This document shows positions 1 through 25,210 of a DNA stretch of 33,578 nt, piece by piece (within the stretch, counting starts at the first letter, position 1; each line of letters opens with the position of its first letter). The position numbers were made by a program, and so were the translations under genes. This DNA comes from a virus (taxonomy: Duplodnaviria; Caudoviricetes): positions 1 through 33,578 of the IMG/VR virus record IMGVR_UViG_3300020045_013871; one strand, given 5' to 3'. Below the pieces are notes generated by a model. The model worked only from the letters and a program-made list of their open reading frames with translations. It was not told the origin of the DNA and ran no database searches.

Positions 1-83
1 GCATACTAACCCGCTGGAAAACTGATGGTAGACAGCCGGTGGTCAAAAAGACTAACGGAAGGGTGGTTCACAAAATCGTATGA
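1..83 (+). CDS. C-terminal fragment of a DnaD-domain replication initiator (5' partial)
   Basis: Frame from 3 reads (G)ILTRWKTDGRQPVVKKTNGRVVHKIV*, matching the DnaD-type YxxGILxxW motif; its TGA (81-83) overlaps the helicase ATG (ATGA). Confidence 0.6.
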   Translation, partial: ILTRWKTDGRQPVVKKTNGRVVHKIV

Positions 84-430
84 ATGACAACCTCTTTCTT
101 CACCCACCGGCTGAGAGTACCACCCGCTACGTTCAATGGTATGAAAAGCTGCTTAACACCCCTGGCATTGATTATGGTTGTGTAATGGATAAGCGGGTTA
201 TCCCCTTGCATCGGGGTGACGTTATGGCAGTCCTGGCCCGGCCCGGTCACGGCAAATCCTCTTTTATGGCGTACATGGCAAAAAGGGAAGCCAACAAGAT
301 CATTGATCGAAAAACCGAAAAGGATGAATGTGTAATCTATGTTTCCTGGGAACAACCAATTGAGGAACTGGAAGCATTTTTTCAAAGCGGTGCGAATTAC
401 AATTCAACTGATTTGGCCTGGGGCCGGGTA
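80..430 (+). pseudogene. DnaB-like replicative helicase, N-terminal part only (truncated at junction; ORF runs on to 511)
   Basis: Walker A ARPGHGKS and H1a-like VIYVSWEQ; helicase-like sequence stops at DLAWGRV, after which the ORF reads the antisense strand of the 397-654 gene. Confidence 0.75.
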
Positions 431-654
431 AGATACCCATTCTCTTGTAATTCATCCAAAATGCGTTCTATTTTATCGCTTCCTGCCGAACCCTTGTTGA
501 TTAAGTCCTGATTACGGCATTCCCATTCATCCGGCTTAGTGAGAAGATAATATAAAACCCCCCTTGCTTCCCAGGATAAATTTGCATCATTAGCTGGTAC
601 GTTGCTAATGTGGGTATAATTCGTGTTCTTTCTAATCCTGATTATGCCGCTCAT
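397..654 (-). pseudogene. Phage replication initiator, N-terminal wHTH only (truncated at ~424)
   Basis: NYTHISN...LSWEARGVLYYLLTKPDEW...ILDELQENGYLTR is typical of phage replisome-organiser N-termini; the ORF ends abruptly 8 codons later. Confidence 0.75.
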
Positions 655-658
655 TATC

Positions 659-1171
659 TTACCCTTTACTTTTGTAACTTAATGAATCCTGATACTTTAT
701 CACTTCAACAATATCATTATTAAATTTTTCTCTGAGCATCTTCCATTCTTCTTCCATAATGGAATCTGAGAAAAATTTAATAACTGGTTCTTTATCAGAT
801 ATTTCCGGGTCTGGTTCTAAATAATTTACGGATTCCATCAATATCGAAATGAATCCCGAACTATAATTTATTGATGTATCCTTCATATCAACTAAACCAA
901 ACTTTTCGATTGTTTCAATAATACGAAGCAAATCGTTTTTTATTGTAGATAATATATGTTTTCTAAATTGATGAGGAGTTCTAGCTTTTTTCTTTAAGTT
1001 ACATTTCCGGCAAGCCATAAATAAGTTATAAATATGGTCACTGCCTCCTTGGGCTTTTGGCACTACGTGTTCAATATGCCAACTCTCGTCAAAATCAATA
1101 TGTAATCCACAATAGGCACAATGCCCCTGTGTTTTAGTGTAAACTTTGTATCTACTTATTTCAGTTGCCAT
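659..1171 (-). CDS. HNH endonuclease with C-terminal extension
   Basis: CAYCG...IEHVVPKAQGGSDHIYNLFMACRKCNLKK; markedly AT-rich. Confidence 0.92.
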   Translation of the reverse strand: MATEISRYKVYTKTQGHCAYCGLHIDFDESWHIEHVVPKAQGGSDHIYNLFMACRKCNLKKKARTPHQFRKHILSTIKNDLLRIIETIEKFGLVDMKDTSINYSSGFISILMESVNYLEPDPEISDKEPVIKFFSDSIMEEEWKMLREKFNNDIVEVIKYQDSLSYKSKG

Positions 1172-1201
1172 AATAAAAATCCTGCTTTCGTGGGGTTATT
1201 G
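1172..1201. repeat. 30-bp direct repeat, copy 1 (directly upstream of HNH start codon)
   Basis: aataaaaatcctgctttcgtggggttattg; 29/30 identical to 2794-2823. Confidence 0.9.
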
Positions 1202-1335
1202 GTTTTGGCCTCACTAGCCTCGAACAGTAGATAAAGAAGGCTAACGAACCAACACCCCCACCAAAGCAGGATGCTTTCTACTGTTCAAGATTCGCCCCGG
1301 CCAAAGGGCTAGTATGCTTTTTGCATACGATTTAG
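1172..1335 (-). ncRNA. Putative structured 5' leader / antisense-type regulatory RNA of the HNH gene
   Basis: Inverted repeats 1179-1204/1247-1272 (23/26), 1222-1231/1277-1286 (10/10), 1213-1219/1307-1313 and 1204-1210/1299-1305. Confidence 0.55.
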
Positions 1336-1343
1336 TTAGCTCC

Positions 1344-1372
1344 ATTATAACACCGTTTCCCCAGAATTGCAA
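1344..1372 (-). promoter_or_regulatory. Sigma70-type promoter for the HNH cassette
   Basis: TTGCAA-17 bp-TATAAT on the minus strand. Confidence 0.75.
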
Positions 1373-1376
1373 GCCT

Positions 1377-2297
1377 TCATATCCTTTTTCCTTGTCCAAT
1401 AAACCGTAACAAATGTTCCGGCGTTCCGTTATACCTAACAAAAAAATCATCCGGCTTGGTCGGTATTTGGCATACTCGCCCTTGAATATTGTACCCGCGC
1501 AATGATGTAGCTATCCGCTGCGCCTGGTCAAGCGCCCCAGGGTCAAGGCAAATATAAACGTTCTTGCCGGTGAAATGTTTGGCCCAATCTTCAACCCAAC
1601 TGTTAGCGCCCGGAATCCCCACGGTTGTAAAGCCTATTTGTTCAAGCACCATTGTTTTGATCTCTCCCTCGACAATCAGAACCTCGTTTGAGCGAAGATA
1701 CCCAAACTCTATTTCATCGGAAGTCTTGAGGGTGTCCAGGTTGAACAATTGATTTTTAAGGCCAGCAAACTCCGGGCGGTATTTACCGTGGCCGTTGGGA
1801 AATTTTAGCCGGTGTCTCAAATTGATTAGTTTGGAATTACAAAAGTAGGGAATTGTAAAGCTGGGACTGCTTGGGTCGGTCGGGCACTGCGGGCAATAAC
1901 CGAGGTGACAACGGTCAACGGTTGCCTTAGTTAGTCCCTGAGTAGAAAAATAGTCAAGCGCTTTGTCAACCTGGCTATGATACCAATCTACCCGATTAGC
2001 CATTAACTGTAAGCGGTCAATAGCTGATAGCTGTTCCTCGTATTCTTTGCGCCGGCGTTCCTCTTTGGCCCGGTTCCAGGCTTCACGCTGTTCCGGCGTG
2101 ATAAAGGATTTATTGACTTCCAGAACAAAGCCTTTGAACCCGCAGCGCCGACAAAAGAAGTTACCTTTGTCCGGCCAAAAAAGAAATCTATCTTCACCCG
2201 CATTGCACTGCGGGCATGCCGCAGACCATTCTTTAGCCGTCTTTTTGCGGTAGTTGGGCAGAGATTCAATATCCAGTCGAGATAGTTGGTTTGTCAT
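1377..2297 (-). CDS. DNA primase (Zn finger + TOPRIM)
   Basis: CPQC...DRF...FFCRRCG zinc finger; VLIVEGEIK, GIPGA, ICLDPG and KPDD TOPRIM motifs. Confidence 0.9.
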   Translation of the reverse strand: MTNQLSRLDIESLPNYRKKTAKEWSAACPQCNAGEDRFLFWPDKGNFFCRRCGFKGFVLEVNKSFITPEQREAWNRAKEERRRKEYEEQLSAIDRLQLMANRVDWYHSQVDKALDYFSTQGLTKATVDRCHLGYCPQCPTDPSSPSFTIPYFCNSKLINLRHRLKFPNGHGKYRPEFAGLKNQLFNLDTLKTSDEIEFGYLRSNEVLIVEGEIKTMVLEQIGFTTVGIPGANSWVEDWAKHFTGKNVYICLDPGALDQAQRIATSLRGYNIQGRVCQIPTKPDDFFVRYNGTPEHLLRFIGQGKRI

Positions 2298-2306
2298 CGG
2301 TGACTC

Positions 2307-2792
2307 CTAGAATTTGGCTGATAGGGCTACATTGATACCTAAATTTATATCGTCAAAGTTGTCGTCGAACACTTCACCCTCGGCGGGTGCTCCGTAGAAG
2401 CGATTCTCTTTAGTGTAATATTCGTGGTAATTAGAGAGGATAAAATCATACTCACATAATCCGGGGGTACTGCACCAACAATCGAGTACCAGGGCTGAGT
2501 ATGGTTGTCTTGCCGGTGGGCCAACTAACATCAAACCAGGCTTTTGGGTAAACGTTACCAGGGCCTTTAATTTCGTTAGTTCGGTATCCGTAAACTCAAA
2601 CGGCTTAACTTCAGCCCACATTTTGACGCGCGGCAAGTAAAAATCTGGTAGATACCAGCCAGCGTTATCCAAATCAAAGCCTTCAAATTCATAGTAAAAT
2701 TCAAAACCCATTTGAGTAAAATAAACGGCCCAGCGTGCTTCTAATCGGCTTCGATAGGTGATATGGTTGTAAGTGGTTGGAATTGCTTTCAT
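2307..2792 (-). CDS. PD-(D/E)XK-family nuclease-like phage protein
   Basis: YRSRLEARWAVYF...YEFEGF...YLPDFYLP...WAEVKP. Confidence 0.75.
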   Translation of the reverse strand: MKAIPTTYNHITYRSRLEARWAVYFTQMGFEFYYEFEGFDLDNAGWYLPDFYLPRVKMWAEVKPFEFTDTELTKLKALVTFTQKPGLMLVGPPARQPYSALVLDCWCSTPGLCEYDFILSNYHEYYTKENRFYGAPAEGEVFDDNFDDINLGINVALSAKF

Positions 2793-3184
2793 AAATAAAA
2801 ATCCTGTTTTCGTGGGGTTATTGCGGGGTTATCCACCGCTTCCGGCTCAAAACCTTCGGTGCAGAGTTCCAGGTCAGACTTAACGAATATTGTATTCCTG
2901 ACCAAATACACCGGCCATTGGGTATTCAATTTGTCGCTTTGCTCAATGGCGATTTTTCCACAATCGCCAGCCGCCTTTATTCTGCGGTCTAACGACTCAG
3001 CCAGGTCTGCTCCTGCAACTAACATTTGGGCCATAGTCCTGGCGTCATCCGTACTTGGATTAGATAGCGCTGCCCACCGGATGCACGCTGGGGCTGTGCC
3101 GTATTTGGTAACGGTTACACTGCCGCCAGCTAATCTGATAATCACCGCGTCACTTCTTTTTTCAATCCTTACCCAGGTTTGCAT
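2789..3184 (-). CDS. Hypothetical protein
   Basis: ORF 2789-3229; likely start ATG 3184 after AAAGGAG; stop overlaps the next start. Confidence 0.65.
   Translation of the reverse strand: MQTWVRIEKRSDAVIIRLAGGSVTVTKYGTAPACIRWAALSNPSTDDARTMAQMLVAGADLAESLDRRIKAAGDCGKIAIEQSDKLNTQWPVYLVRNTIFVKSDLELCTEGFEPEAVDNPAITPRKQDFYL
2794..2823. repeat. 30-bp direct repeat, copy 2 (directly upstream of the 2307-2792 nuclease start codon)
   Basis: aataaaaatcctgttttcgtggggttattg. Confidence 0.9.
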
Positions 3185-3225
3185 AGTTGCTCCTTTGCGT
3201 GGAAATAAAATAACGTCTAGTAAAT

Positions 3226-3771
3226 TCATCGGTTTCGTATTGCCTTTTTAAGAACTTTCTCTAATCCGTTTAACGATTTTTCTTTTTGTATCAATAATTG
3301 ATCTAACCTAATTTTGTGTATCTTTTTTTTGCCCTTAGATAAATTGAATATTCTTTTTTCAATTGTGGCTAGCGCCTCTAATCTTATTTTGATTCTATCA
3401 TTTACAGATTTTTTATTTAGACTAGAGAAATATTCTCCAAGCTTTTGAATAACCATATCTGCATCTAATTGATTATCAATCTCAAATAACTTAATATTTA
3501 ATTTAGCACATTGAGAGCGTTTGAATTTATCCCTGTCTAGTGCCGTTAGATAACCATTGTAGTTATTGTGAAAATAGGGAACATAATTGTAATGTTGTAG
3601 TCCTTGTATCTCAATAGCTACTTGTATATCCGGCAGATAAAAGTCTAATTCCAATCGCTCACCATTATCAGTTATAAGCCAGTCCGGTCGTATATTTTCA
3701 TCTATGTTAAATTGGCTAAAATGGACTGATAATCGTTTACCAAAATATCTTTGTAATCTGGAAGTTGACAT
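3226..3771 (-). CDS. PD-(D/E)XK / Vsr-DUF559-like endonuclease
   Basis: RPDWL...RLELDFYLPDIQVAIEIQGLQHY...DKFKRSQC; strongly AT-rich. Confidence 0.8.
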   Translation of the reverse strand: MSTSRLQRYFGKRLSVHFSQFNIDENIRPDWLITDNGERLELDFYLPDIQVAIEIQGLQHYNYVPYFHNNYNGYLTALDRDKFKRSQCAKLNIKLFEIDNQLDADMVIQKLGEYFSSLNKKSVNDRIKIRLEALATIEKRIFNLSKGKKKIHKIRLDQLLIQKEKSLNGLEKVLKKAIRNR

Positions 3772-4010
3772 TAAGAAAACCTTTTAGGAAACAAAAAGAG
3801 CACTTTCTTAGCAAGTCGGCCCCGGATGCAAAAGAGATTTGTTTCCGAAGGCTCGCCTGGCAGTCGGCCTTCAGTGAAGGCCGACTTGCTAAGAAAGTGC
3901 TCTTAATTGATAAATTAAATGGTAAGGTTTTCATACCCTCTTGCATCCGTTTACCGCTTAGTCTCCCCGGCGCTGCCAACGCCTCAACTAGCGATTACTT
4001 AATATGTTGT
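3772..4010 (-). ncRNA. Putative structured 5' leader of the 3226-3771 nuclease gene
   Basis: Perfect 26-bp inverted repeat 3796-3821/3879-3904, plus 3823-3831/3941-3949, 3776-3783/3924-3931, 3787-3795/3838-3846 and hairpin 3863-3885. Confidence 0.55.
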
Positions 4011-4016
4011 ATTAAG

Positions 4017-4046
4017 ATTATATCATAGGTAGTCATTTGTTGTCAA
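4017..4046 (-). promoter_or_regulatory. Sigma70-type promoter
   Basis: TTGACA-18 bp-TATAAT on the minus strand. Confidence 0.75.
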
Positions 4047-4094
4047 TATCCAATCCACACCCACTATACCACATCCGCCGCCCGGCGTCAAGCG

Positions 4095-4135
4095 TTCGGC
4101 TGAGCTCACGCCGAAGCCCTGAGCTTGTCGAAGGG
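4095..4135. repeat. Tandem REP-like palindromic elements
   Basis: ttcggc-tgagctca-c-gccgaa followed by gccctgagcttgtcgaaggg, resembling the CCCTTCGACAAGCTCAGGG class of bacterial extragenic palindromes (recalled, not searched). Confidence 0.55.
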
Positions 4136-4152
4136 TCAACCCTTCCAGGCAA

Positions 4153-4497
4153 TCATAGTGTTTTCCGACGCGGCTTTTTAGGTATGGGCAGCTCCCAATC
4201 GTCGATTATCTTTTGCCAATTGAGTTCCGCCGGTTTTGCGTCAGCAAACCCGGCTTGCATAACATCGCCAAATTGTTTTTGTACACGCGCGTCCGCCAAC
4301 ATCCCAATGCCGCTCATTTCGATTCCCGCCATTAAAATGCGGTTGCTTTTGATAAAAACTGCGGCTGCACAATTGCCGCATAGTCCAGATTGCAAAGCCT
4401 CCGCCTTTGTAGCGAAGGCCATCAGCCGCGCCTTTGGGTTAGGGGGCGGCCCAACTTTACAGGGTTTACCGCATCTGGTACATTCAACTATTTCCAT
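4153..4497 (-). CDS. Hypothetical protein with CxxC pairs (putative Zn-binding)
   Basis: CTRC and CGNC; AAGGAG RBS. Confidence 0.75.
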   Translation of the reverse strand: MEIVECTRCGKPCKVGPPPNPKARLMAFATKAEALQSGLCGNCAAAVFIKSNRILMAGIEMSGIGMLADARVQKQFGDVMQAGFADAKPAELNWQKIIDDWELPIPKKPRRKTL

Positions 4498-6281: not shown

Positions 6282-7088
6282 CTAACTATGATACTGCGCG
6301 ATATAACGCGGATTGTAATACCCAGCAGGTAGATACTCTTGCAAATCTTTTTTGATATAATGTTTGACGCCCAACCGGTTGACCAGTTCTACGATTCGCA
6401 ACGTGTAGTCCTGCCAATCGGTTGTATAGGTCATCGGTAAATAGTTGGCCCGGCCAACTTTGTACAGGTCAACAAATTTATGAGTCTCCCGGATAATCTG
6501 CAAACTACTGTCAGTATCAAGTGTGGGTTCCAGGCTGACCCACGTAAAAATACCGGCGTTGTGGAATTTTTCAAGGGTGGCAATCCGGTCGCCCGGCAAT
6601 GCCGCGCCGCGCTCCCACTTGAGGCTGAAGGCGTCATCCAGGCTGGTCAGGGTCGAAGCAAACGAATCACGGCCAGGCCGGAACATATCCAGATCACGCA
6701 ATGCCCGACTGCCACCTTTGGTCAAGGTACTAAAAGCCAAGCCGTGAATTTTGAGCACTTGCAGCACTTGGCGGGTGAGGCTGTTGTCACCGGGGTGAAA
6801 CGGGTCGGTAGTGAAAGACAACATTACCTGTTCAGTAGACCCCAACGCTTGATACTTCCTGGCGTCTTTAGTGAGCAATTCCAGATAGTTAGGCCGGGGA
6901 AATGCGCCAGCGTCAAACTCCGGGCGGGTGATTTTAAGAACGCGGGGCACATAGCAGTAGACGCATTTGTGCCCGCAGCCCCGGTAAGGGTTAGCCGCCA
7001 GCGGCGCATACTCGCCAGCTTGCCCGGCTGGGGCATAAATATAGCTGCATCCTTTGACACTGCGGCCATCAGAATTAAATATTACCAT
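6282..7088 (-). CDS. Radical SAM protein (spore photoproduct lyase-like)
   Basis: NPYRGCGHKCVYCY (CxxxCxxC), FTTDPF, LTKG and WVSLEP motifs. Confidence 0.85.
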   Translation of the reverse strand: MVIFNSDGRSVKGCSYIYAPAGQAGEYAPLAANPYRGCGHKCVYCYVPRVLKITRPEFDAGAFPRPNYLELLTKDARKYQALGSTEQVMLSFTTDPFHPGDNSLTRQVLQVLKIHGLAFSTLTKGGSRALRDLDMFRPGRDSFASTLTSLDDAFSLKWERGAALPGDRIATLEKFHNAGIFTWVSLEPTLDTDSSLQIIRETHKFVDLYKVGRANYLPMTYTTDWQDYTLRIVELVNRLGVKHYIKKDLQEYLPAGYYNPRYIAQYHS

Positions 7089-9104: not shown

Positions 9105-9187
9105 ATCCAATCCGCTGCCCCGCTCGTGACAAAATCGGGTTATCCCCTTGACGACGGGGCGGCGGCCATTATGAAAGTTAGGAAATT

Positions 9188-9757
9188 ATGAAGATAAATT
9201 TTTTAGACGGCAGCACAAAAGATTTTACCAATTTGCGCGGGGCCAACCTGAGCGGGGCCGACCTGGGCTGGGCCAACCTGAGCGGGGCCAACCTGAGCGG
9301 GGCCAACCTGAGCGGGGCTAACCTGCACGGGGCCAACCTGAACGGGGCCGACCTGAGCGGGGCCGACCTGAGCGGGGCTAACCTGTGCGGGGCCATCCTG
9401 CGCGGGGCTGACCTGCGCGAGGCCATCCTGAGCTGGGCCGACCTGAGCTGGGCCAACCTGCGCGAGGCTAACCTGTGCAGGGCCGACCTGAGCTGGGCCA
9501 ACCTGCGCGAGGCCAACCTGTGCGGGGCCATCCTGAGCGGCGTCCGTGGCCTCGTGCGGATTTCCTGGACTGGATACGAAATGATAATCCAGGCTAAGAC
9601 AACCACCATCGGTTGCCATACCCTGCCAAATACCGAGTGGCTGGCAATGGATACTGAGACCGCCGTAACGATGGGTATCAAATGGGAACACTTTGAGTTG
9701 TACCACGCCTTTTTTGCGGCGGCAATCAAGGCACTAAAAAAGACGCCCGCCCGGTGA
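9188..9757 (+). CDS. Pentapeptide repeat protein
   Basis: About 20 A(N/D)Lxx repeats encoded by 15-bp DNA repeats; C-terminal IGC...W domain. Confidence 0.92.
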
Positions 9758-9875
9758 CAAACACCGAATATGAATTGCTGGATGAAATCCCGGCAAAAAT
9801 AGCAGTTGATGTTGAGAATTGAGGCACTAGAGACCAAAGTGGCTGATACCAGACCATTATGAAAGTGAGGAAAAT

Positions 9876-10112
9876 ATGAAGATAAAATTTTTAGATGGTA
9901 CGGAAAAAGAATTTACCAATTTGCGCGGGGCTAACCTGCGCTGGGCCAACCTGCGCGAGGCTGACCTGAGCGAGGTTGACCTGAGCGAGGCCAACCTGAG
10001 CTGGGCCAACCTGCGCGAGGCCAACCTGAGCTGGGCCAACCTGCGCGAGGCCAAAATTATACAAACCCAAATTTCGGTTGTAATTGCCGGCTTGGGCTTA
10101 GAAATAGTGTAA
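9876..10112 (+). CDS. Short pentapeptide repeat protein (paralog of 9188-9757)
   Basis: [21 protein letters not shown] vs [21 protein letters not shown]; about 8 repeats. Confidence 0.85.
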
Positions 10113-10186
10113 ACGCCCGTTCCGGTGACTGAAACCCCGTGAAAAACCAGGGGCAGGCCGGGCGGGCGTCTATTAAGAAGAAAAAA

Positions 10187-10429
10187 ATGAGGATACAATC
10201 TATATTAGCACGAAAAGTAATCAAGGTCAAGAGGCAGTGTGTCCAGTGCCAACTAGCCCAGGGTGGGCAGGGCGGCACGCACTGCGGGAACTGCGGCTGT
10301 TGCAGGGGGCACGCCGCGCCGGCCTGCCCCCGGCCTTTAACGGGGGTCAAGCCGCTGACGGTGGCACAAGCCGCCATTCAGGTTTGTGAGACAAACAGCC
10401 GGGCCGGGCGACTGGTCAGGGGGTGGTAA
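10187..10429 (+). CDS. Cys-rich hypothetical protein
   Basis: CVQC...CGNCGCC...C; stop abuts the next ATG. Confidence 0.6.
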   Translation: MRIQSILARKVIKVKRQCVQCQLAQGGQGGTHCGNCGCCRGHAAPACPRPLTGVKPLTVAQAAIQVCETNSRAGRLVRGW

Positions 10430-11670: not shown

Positions 11671-11899
11671 TTCACACCCCCGGCGGCTGGCTCAGGTTGG
11701 CCGCCGGGCATAAGGAGACAAATGTACTACGTTACCTCACAAAAACCGTATACAAGTTTACCATCAACACGCAAGCGGGGATACCCCGCAGTACACGCCG
11801 TCGATAATGGTACTACCCTATGTGGCATAAAAAATTTAAATGGGTGACAACGGAGGGGCGGAACCTCCCCGGCAGGCACGAGTTCATTAACGATAGGCA

Positions 11900-11927
11900 A
11901 GCGCCCGTAAAAGCCGGGGCAAGGAGA
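11900..11927 (+). repeat. 28-bp start-associated direct repeat, copy 1
   Basis: agcgcccgtaaaagccggggcaaggaga; identical at 12081-12108. Confidence 0.9.
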
Positions 11928-11932
11928 AAAGA

Positions 11933-12073
11933 ATGGCGAAAGATATTAAGCGATTTACTAATTTCGACGAGGCTTTTGCTTACTGCCGAGAGGCCGGCTC
12001 ACCGGTAATTGTATGGGTAAATCAGACTAAATATAAATTGTTTCCATCCGGGAAAGCATTAAAGGTATCATAG
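11933..12073 (+). CDS. Hypothetical 46-aa protein
   Basis: MAKDIKRFTNFDEAFAYCREAG...KVS*; AAGGAG RBS; lies between the two repeat copies. Confidence 0.65.
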   Translation: MAKDIKRFTNFDEAFAYCREAGSPVIVWVNQTKYKLFPSGKALKVS

Positions 12074-12080
12074 GCAAGCC

Positions 12081-12108
12081 AGCGCCCGTAAAAGCCGGGG
12101 CAAGGAGA
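12081..12108 (+). repeat. 28-bp start-associated direct repeat, copy 2
   Basis: Identical to 11900-11927. Confidence 0.9.
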
Positions 12109-12114
12109 GAAATA

Positions 12115-24769: not shown

Positions 24770-24884
24770 TAGGTTTCCTCAATTCGATGAGTTGAACTTC
24801 CTCAGTTGTTTCAAAAGGTTGTTCTTCTCCGTCGTTATATTTTCGTATGGTAATCGTTACCGTGGCCTTGCCGGTGGTAATCAT
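24693..24884 (-). CDS. Hypothetical protein, possibly the split N-terminal part of 24389-24769
   Basis: Coupled to the DALR gene (TAATG); TITIRKY...PFE segment. Confidence 0.45.
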   Translation of the reverse strand: MITTGKATVTITIRKYNDGEEQPFETTEEVQLIELRKPNGRPVKRRNHLAPKPVDRGSGDGVQ

Positions 24885-25210
24885 TAGTAACCCCTTAACT
24901 TACTCAGATCAGCATAGCCCCTAGTTAACCCTTTGATGCCTTGCAACAAGGCCAGCCGGTTAGTCCTGGTTTTCTTATCCTTGACCATTACCTTCGTCTT
25001 GTCAAAAAACCGGTCTATGGGCCGTTCCAGGCTCCTTAGCGCGTCGATAACCGCTTCAGGGTTATCGGCTATCATCTCTACTGCCTGTTGGTAGGCCCGG
25101 TATAATTCCAACTCGCCGGGCCGCCGTAACAGCGCCGGGTTAATCGAGTAGTCGCCATCTGATTTGCTAACCAATCTCGCACATCTGGAATAAGCTTTGA
25201 GCCAGGTCAT
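24884..25210 (-). CDS. Stand-alone DALR anticodon-binding domain derived from the glycyl-tRNA synthetase beta subunit
   Basis: AYSRCARL...INPALL...ELELY...PIDRFFD..KVM..D...RTNRLALL...ADLSKL.GY matches the GlyRS C-terminal pattern FFDxVxVMxxDxxxRxNRLALL. Confidence 0.85.
   Translation of the reverse strand: MTWLKAYSRCARLVSKSDGDYSINPALLRRPGELELYRAYQQAVEMIADNPEAVIDALRSLERPIDRFFDKTKVMVKDKKTRTNRLALLQGIKGLTRGYADLSKLRGY

Follow-up and report, generated by a model that had tools for sequence, protein, structure and literature searches.

The DNA analysed here (hereafter the window) is a whole virus record of 33,578 bases and is itself a fragment. All parts of the finding lie on the minus strand, inside the replication module, in the following order: a primase gene (2297 to 1377), a promoter-like site (1372-1344), a leader of approximately 165 nt, an HNH endonuclease gene (1171 to 659), and an initiator-like gene (from 654). 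A preliminary description had listed TTGCAA-17-TATAAT, a leader and an AT-rich HNH gene, and all of these are indeed present. The features are:

1377-2297, minus strand: primase gene, whose end precedes the -35 box by 4 nt
1344-1372, minus strand: sigma-70-type promoter-like site with TTGCAA (1372-1367), a 17-nt spacer and TG-extended TATAAT (1349-1344); predicted start near 1337
1312-1328, minus strand: small 5' hairpin of 6 bp, outside the conserved core
1294-1309, minus strand: a1 hairpin of 5 bp; its loop and the adjacent U (1299-1305) are the a1 address box
1277-1289, minus strand: b1 address box, 13 nt, complementary to b'
1247-1272, minus strand: 5' arm of a long closing, terminator-like stem; the 26-nt element of the preliminary description
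1211-1247, minus strand: inner hairpin (1237-1247 with 1211-1221), displaying b' in its loop
1219-1231, minus strand: b', the complement of b1; most of it lies in the inner loop, and 3 nt are shared with the inner stem
1205-1211, minus strand: a', the complement of a1, lying unpaired as a bulge that separates the inner hairpin from the 3' arm
1179-1204, minus strand: 3' arm of the closing stem, containing the Shine-Dalgarno-like AGGA (1180-1183) of the HNH gene
1172-1179, minus strand: U-run behind the stem, intrinsic-terminator-like, short and broken in the window
659-1171, minus strand: HNH endonuclease gene, 170 aa, with an N-terminal HNH domain and two CxxC pairs
424-654, minus strand: N-terminus of a replication-initiator-like gene, starting 4 nt behind the HNH stop codon and matching PHROG initiator families

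The HNH protein exceeds the Pfam cut-offs for HNH, HNH_4, and HNH_5, and its gene has a GC content of 31.6% compared to 50.6% for the window. No close relative was found, as the protein search returned only the protein itself among 24 candidates, and single-protein searches with the HNH protein or the primase yielded no viral loci. The initiator-like N-terminus shares 82% identity over 77 aa with a protein in the same place in a related locus (L004). The gene is cut near 424-431 by an inversion in the window contig. A DnaB fragment on the plus strand (80-430; 47% to the DnaB of L004 over 118 aa) adjoins the cut gene and, since it lies on the other strand at the break, the contig end is likely inverted or chimeric.

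Elsewhere in the window, the early region holds a radical SAM gene (6282-7088), and a stand-alone DALR anticodon-binding domain protein (24884-25210; PF05746, E 2e-8) is encoded amid structural genes. A 199-nt, 83%-like copy of the start of a pentapeptide-repeat gene (9188-9757; region 9166-10052) lies at 9854-10052. The regions 10135-10345 and 11897-12111 contain two unexplained repeats, one inverted (35 nt, 80%) and one direct (34 nt, 94%).

Taken by itself, the promoter-like match is within what chance would give (12 sites in 1-4000 compared to 8.7 +/- 3.2 in shuffled DNA). A similar site was found 85-122 nt before the stem in six of the seven members of the close set described below, and the seventh shows one by eye. 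A scan for sigma-70-type promoters revealed neither a second one inside the leader (1172-1343) nor a facing one near it.

The predicted folding of the leader beats chance, with z -5.2 for 1160-1340 and z -7.1 for 1172-1275. The complementarity between 1247-1272 and 1179-1204 is as previously described (23 Watson-Crick pairs, one G-U, two mismatches). The crossing stem that competes with it is also real and is longer than had been proposed, as b1 and b' (1277-1289 with 1219-1231) form 13 bp, of which 12 are Watson-Crick and one is G-U, vs 1222-1231/1277-1286. In addition, a1 can pair with a' (1299-1305 with 1205-1211). The preliminary description had regarded the 26-nt element as antisense to the region of the ribosome-binding site. 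The annotated order in P1 is a1, b1, C4, a2, b2, and the parts in the window map onto the first half of it; the 26-nt repeat is therefore the closing stem of the RNA, and the antisense-like parts are b' in the inner loop and a' in the bulge. The a1:a' pairing, the inner hairpin, the U-run and two further elements described below (2794-2823 and 3772-4046) had been missed.

Collection of related leaders

In order to find related leaders, 38 of the 120 listed primase relatives were aligned and 87 loci were fetched; these adjoin replication genes by construction. Using nhmmer, we found the leader, with different letters, in L004, L007, L048, and L027. A pattern scan added two members, L088 and L095. 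Three of its 19 matches were real, one of them being the L004 contig, and the other 16 were discarded because the long stem was absent. The close set therefore has seven members (the window, L004, L007, L048, L027, L088, and L095). It should be noted that the long stem was a selection criterion for this set, and the T-run was a search condition for the two members found by pattern.

A scan for shape only (long stem, wide loop, T-run) gave 38 matches in 700,023 bases. After removal of 11 duplicates, two mirror-strand matches and three matches judged by eye not to be leaders, a wider set of 22 distinct leaders was obtained. When five whole records were scanned in the same way, nine matches were found vs one in shuffled DNA. 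A covariance model was positive in 5 of 21 viral records, four of which were training members, and ranked further leaders in the fetched loci. A stricter stem pattern recovered only four members, all already known. Exact-sequence DNA patterns found nothing in viral, metagenome, and genome collections, one of these patterns being a weak test, as the window's own spacing lay at the upper limit of its gap range (30-60). A blastn search against 50,697 phage records returned only a 23-nt chance match.

The Rfam scan of the window gave no match at gathering score to C4, c4-2, HEARO or any other family; C4, c4-a1b1, and c4-2 were absent at E<=10 in 1000-4300 and had no match in 12 related loci. As positive controls, P1 and P4 sequences matched C4, c4-a1b1, and isrK. 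The c4-2 motif is described in the supplement of PMC5737381. A literature search, mostly without subscription papers or the original P1/P4 work, found no title or abstract in which the leader is described. The leader could be among the 10,006 candidate viral RNAs of PMC10690425.

Conserved pairings

Covariation across the homologous leaders, which had been suggested as a check, was found and is strong for the closing stem. In the seven close homologs, 93.5% of the stem cells are paired and 11 of 24 pairs have changed on both sides. In the a1 hairpin, 97% of the cells are paired, and three of five pairs have changed on both sides. The score of these two elements was reached by none of 500 shuffles and slid controls paired at 43-53%, a control that related sequences as such can beat and that is based on few members. 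Among 168 stem cells we counted 18 G-U and 2 A-C, which favours an RNA transcribed from the minus strand.

The b1:b' pairing and the inner hairpin were not used to select members and thus provide a stronger test than the stem. Each b1 paired best with its own partner in all seven members (mean -19.9 vs -10.0 kcal/mol), a result reached by 1 of 5040 permutations. The inner hairpin gave the same outcome (own partner best in 7/7; 1 of 5040 permutations). In L007, a1 and a' show a matching change. A contig from sequencing run X5 (single contig, depth 3.9) carries double changes at 1278/1230, 1280/1228, and 1281/1227, all in b1:b', as well as matched insertions behind 1285 and 1222; no change is listed for its long stem and a1 hairpin. 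In the wider set, for 16 of 22 leaders no interior paired as well with the upstream 75 nt as the leader's own; with the 75 nt downstream as control, this was the case in 0 of 22. Some leaders of the wider set have a' and b' in reversed order. In all seven close homologs, the stem is followed by four or more U.

The address thus varies on a scaffold that stays, as the X5 contig shows. Its rapid change may be no more than compensatory drift of a neutral kind.

One further stem had been proposed to flank the crossing pairing. Its two sides (1213-1219 and 1307-1313) are complementary at seven of seven positions in the window, and the pairing is not conserved among the homologs. We rejected it as a feature of the family, as the own partner was best in only three of seven members and 2563 of 5040 permutations were as good. 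Only 51% of the cells were paired, a value obtained with an alignment that is out of register there; the permutation test is free of that fault.

A second leader, an orphan arm and exchangeable genes

Two further elements on the minus strand are related to the leader:

3772-4046, minus strand: second leader of related design, with a promoter-like site, a TTGGCAG loop, a 13-nt b1, a perfect 26-bp stem and a U-run
2794-2823, minus strand: orphan copy (29/30) of the 3' arm together with the U-run, preceding a nuclease-like gene (2792 to 2307)

The stem of the second leader is formed by 3796-3821 and 3879-3904, its a' and b' are in the swapped order, and its address differs from that of the first leader. 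It precedes an AT-rich nuclease-like gene (3771 to 3226). A short extra stem may cover the ribosome site of this gene. A similar gene in L004 (6410-7150) is also preceded by a leader, which differs in its letters. Four of the five whole records scanned contain a pair of leaders 2-3 kb apart that differ in address.

The orphan arm sits in the end of an ORF (3229 to 2789), with a short tandem duplication before it. We considered 2794-2823 as a target in trans and rejected it, as the sequence complementary to it is tied up in the stem and, in a related contig, the homolog of that gene has a leader before it. In this contig, from run X3, the homolog of the gene at 2792 to 2307 is joined to leader positions 1192-1213, so the orphan arm is likely a leader relic. 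It suggests gene swapping by recombination within leader arms. Another contig from run X3 carries the promoter and leader (1163-1369; 9 differences, 3 gaps) with different DNA on both sides.

The first gene behind the leader varies. In the close set it encodes an HNH protein in four members, including both members found independently of the primase, a primase in one, and small ORFs in two. The start codon lies 7-10 nt behind the stem in the four HNH-bearing members and 24-59 nt behind it in the other three, in which the purine-rich site is outside the stem, yet stem and U-run are kept. Indeed, the predicted fold sequesters the Shine-Dalgarno site in four of the seven members. The idea that the leader masks the ribosome-binding site thus fits the HNH-bearing members and not the other three; as the U-run stands behind the stem in all seven, termination is indicated as the shared output.

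The HNH proteins behind the leaders are unrelated, with lengths of 117-273 aa and domains at varying positions. The comparison of loci indicates that the leader is a module with exchangeable cargo, in which HNH is a passenger and not a partner. In a comparison with homing cassettes, 14 primase loci were read by eye, and 12 lacked such a leader within 420 nt behind the primase. By eye, L025 has an HNH-like ORF directly behind the primase (1142-1480), without a leader, which resembles the C-terminal part of the L004 HNH protein. A variant leader with a 13-nt address lies directly before a Phage_rep_O initiator in L113 (1520-1670; G016), far from the primase locus.

Proposed mechanism and alternative explanations

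Considering layout and covariation together, the leader appears to be a real, covarying and uncatalogued RNA switch with a C4/CI-like layout, which falls outside the C4 family as modelled. It has two sets of pairings, both kept with changed letters: the long stem, the inner hairpin and the a1 hairpin (set 1), and b1:b' with a1:a' (set 2). In predicted folds of the growing transcript, b1:b' is present from 116 nt and is joined by a1:a' at 132-148 nt (-49.5 kcal/mol); the long stem is predicted from 156 nt, reaching -63.9 kcal/mol at 164 nt. In the predicted final fold, set 1 is more stable by 13-32 kcal/mol across the seven members. Set 2 dominates the predicted nascent fold in five of the seven (18-25 expected pairs vs 5 and 3 in L048 and L088), and a1:a' is part of it in only four.

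We propose that this conserved RNA switches between two states as a minimal attenuator of the C4 type, flipped to 'stop' by its own released copies, and we put the probability of this reading at about 0.5. According to the folding predictions, set 2 would form first in the nascent RNA and enclose the 5' arm of the stem. It could then act as an antiterminator, allowing the polymerase to pass the U-run. Once the 3' arm has emerged, set 1 would form, leading to termination and burying the ribosome site. By analogy to C4 and CI, the terminated and perhaps trimmed RNAs would present b' as part of a loop and a' as a bulge, and would bind a1 and b1 of new transcripts before these pair in cis, so that termination is forced. 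The outcome would be negative feedback with a sequence-specific address, limiting output to an early burst of the HNH protein and the product of the initiator-like gene.

No tyrosine integrase, serine recombinase or ParA (PF00589, PF07508, PF13614) was found in the five related records, four of which are near complete, which leaves a role in lysogenic immunity without support. HTH_3 matches occur in four of these five records, above the cut-off in one.

The two folds would be equally expected of an attenuator acting in cis only, a strong rival that we regard as possible though somewhat doubtful. Here, the choice between the folds would be made by the kinetics of folding, by pausing, or by a protein of phage or host; the leak would be fixed or timed, and no RNA would act in trans. 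Every conserved pairing is possible within one molecule, no second exact b1 site was found in the five records, and the lysogeny genes searched for there were not found either. Control in cis alone fails to explain why a1, b', and a' lie in loops and a bulge as in C4, and why the address changes on a constant scaffold and even differs between the two leaders of one genome. The sign of the feedback could also be reversed, which we consider unlikely. The terminated RNA carries both halves, so pairing in trans could activate instead, as IsrK does: the a1/b1 half, which is predicted to remain unpaired in the short RNA, would bind b' and a' of new transcripts, block the stem and turn the genes on as the short RNA builds up, working as a timer. 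IsrK, a homolog of P4 seqA, is described as activating its own long transcript in trans (PMC4825925). In the window's leader, a1 and b1 would be exposed about 50 nt before b', and b' would be captured in cis at once, which would leave a shorter time window for activation.

The preliminary description came closest to control of translation only, in which transcription runs on and a toxic nuclease is kept in check by the stem covering its ribosome site. The Shine-Dalgarno-like site within the 3' arm and the short distance to the start codon in all four HNH-bearing members agree with it, and such hairpins are known for I-TevI, segB, and mobE (PMC2988022). It is nevertheless improbable as the whole explanation, given the three members that keep stem and U-run with the site outside and the lack of a second sigma-70-type promoter inside the leader. 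It seems very unlikely that the leader guides the HNH protein or serves it as a scaffold, an idea also raised at the outset, or that it is a small RNA with targets in other genes or phages. Four of the seven close members do precede an HNH gene, including both that were found without the primase query, and the 3' arm has a copy before another nuclease-like gene. However, the leader stands before unrelated HNH genes or other genes altogether, which speaks against an HNH guide; its neighbours change freely, and a 95%-like leader occurs with others on both sides. Moreover, in every case the variable loop matches the box upstream of it in the same leader, the second 3' arm looks like a relic, and Rfam gave no match.

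Significance

C4 and CI are classic cases of phage immunity run by small RNAs. A paper on RNA motifs lists them for Proteobacteria and their phages (PMC2864571). We tentatively suggest that address-coded RNA attenuators are a widespread and uncatalogued class to which the leader belongs. In this stripped-down version of C4/CI, one hairpin would be both regulator and terminator and would serve self/non-self recognition. If this were true, each leader would be shut off by its own released RNA and ignore other addresses, in phages without sign of integration, and the nuclease or replication module would fire only in cells without a matching RNA. Co-infecting phages could then tell self from non-self without a protein, and addresses would diversify faster than the scaffold. 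A compact, terminator-merged version, present twice per genome with different addresses before nucleases and replication genes, would mean that the design is broader than known and not bound to lysogeny. Without an effect in trans, the leader would be a real but more ordinary cis attenuator. With its approximately 165 nt, its sigma-70-type promoter-like site and natural non-matching variants, it makes termination, the sign of the feedback and address specificity directly testable. It could also supply orthogonal RNA switches.

Comparison with known systems

Guide RNAs of the HEARO/omega type are recognized by a model match together with strict linkage to one RuvC-HNH protein family. Here, no Rfam match, only HNH Pfam families on the protein, and varied downstream genes were found.

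In the plasmid attenuators of pT181 and pIP501, an antisense RNA from the opposite strand shifts an antiterminator to a terminator before a replication gene. Binding of an RNA to the leader would likewise replace an antiterminator by a terminator, again before a replication gene; unlike in the plasmids, the leader's complement lies downstream on the same strand.

Termination in P4 is Rho-dependent, whereas the U-run of the leader resembles an intrinsic terminator. P4 CI and Gifsy-1 IsrK (RF01394) share with our proposal an RNA that derives from the leader and pairs with sites in its own transcript, thereby controlling premature termination before replication functions (PMC4825925, PMC3632133). 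CI pairs with seqA and seqC to bring about termination (PMC4825925), whereas the leader has no seqC-like downstream site. The leader also differs from IsrK and CI in that it has no match to the IsrK model and no lysogeny genes were found in its relatives (five records).

Like the hairpins of T4-type homing endonucleases (I-TevI, segB, Aeh1 mobE), the leader has a stable stem that buries the Shine-Dalgarno site of a phage nuclease. According to PMC2988022, a late promoter inside those hairpins frees the site, whereas the promoter-like site of the leader lies upstream of everything. The leader further adds conserved crossing pairs and a U-run.

The closest likeness is to C4 of P1/P7 (RF01695) with c4-a1b1 (RF03163), and it was this kinship that the preliminary description had seen; order of parts and covariation bear it out, and membership in Rfam C4 or c4-2 does not hold. 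Unlike in the C4 model, which has two inner hairpins and a stem of 17 bp, the window leader and its close homologs have one inner hairpin and stems of 24-26 bp. The leader has a U-run and the ribosome site directly at the base of the stem, and no a2/b2 was found downstream (downstream control, 0 of 22). The stems begin with AUCC or CUCC and not with the GGW reported as the RNase P site in PMC5320573, and the leader would gate nucleases and replication genes, whereas C4 gates icd-ant. The same source attributes the difference in specificity between P1 and P7 to 4 nt, and together with PMC12197685 it assigns this specificity to the C4 loops. In the P1 sequence compared here, a1 lies in a hairpin loop, b' in the inner loop of C4, and a' in the junction before the closing strand. 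The leader has the same layout, with a1 in a hairpin loop, then b1, then a long-stemmed RNA with b' in its loop and a' in the junction. Even the letters of its a-site resemble the Rfam consensus (UUUGGC in the loop, GCCAA in the junction) and, like C4, it carries variable addresses.
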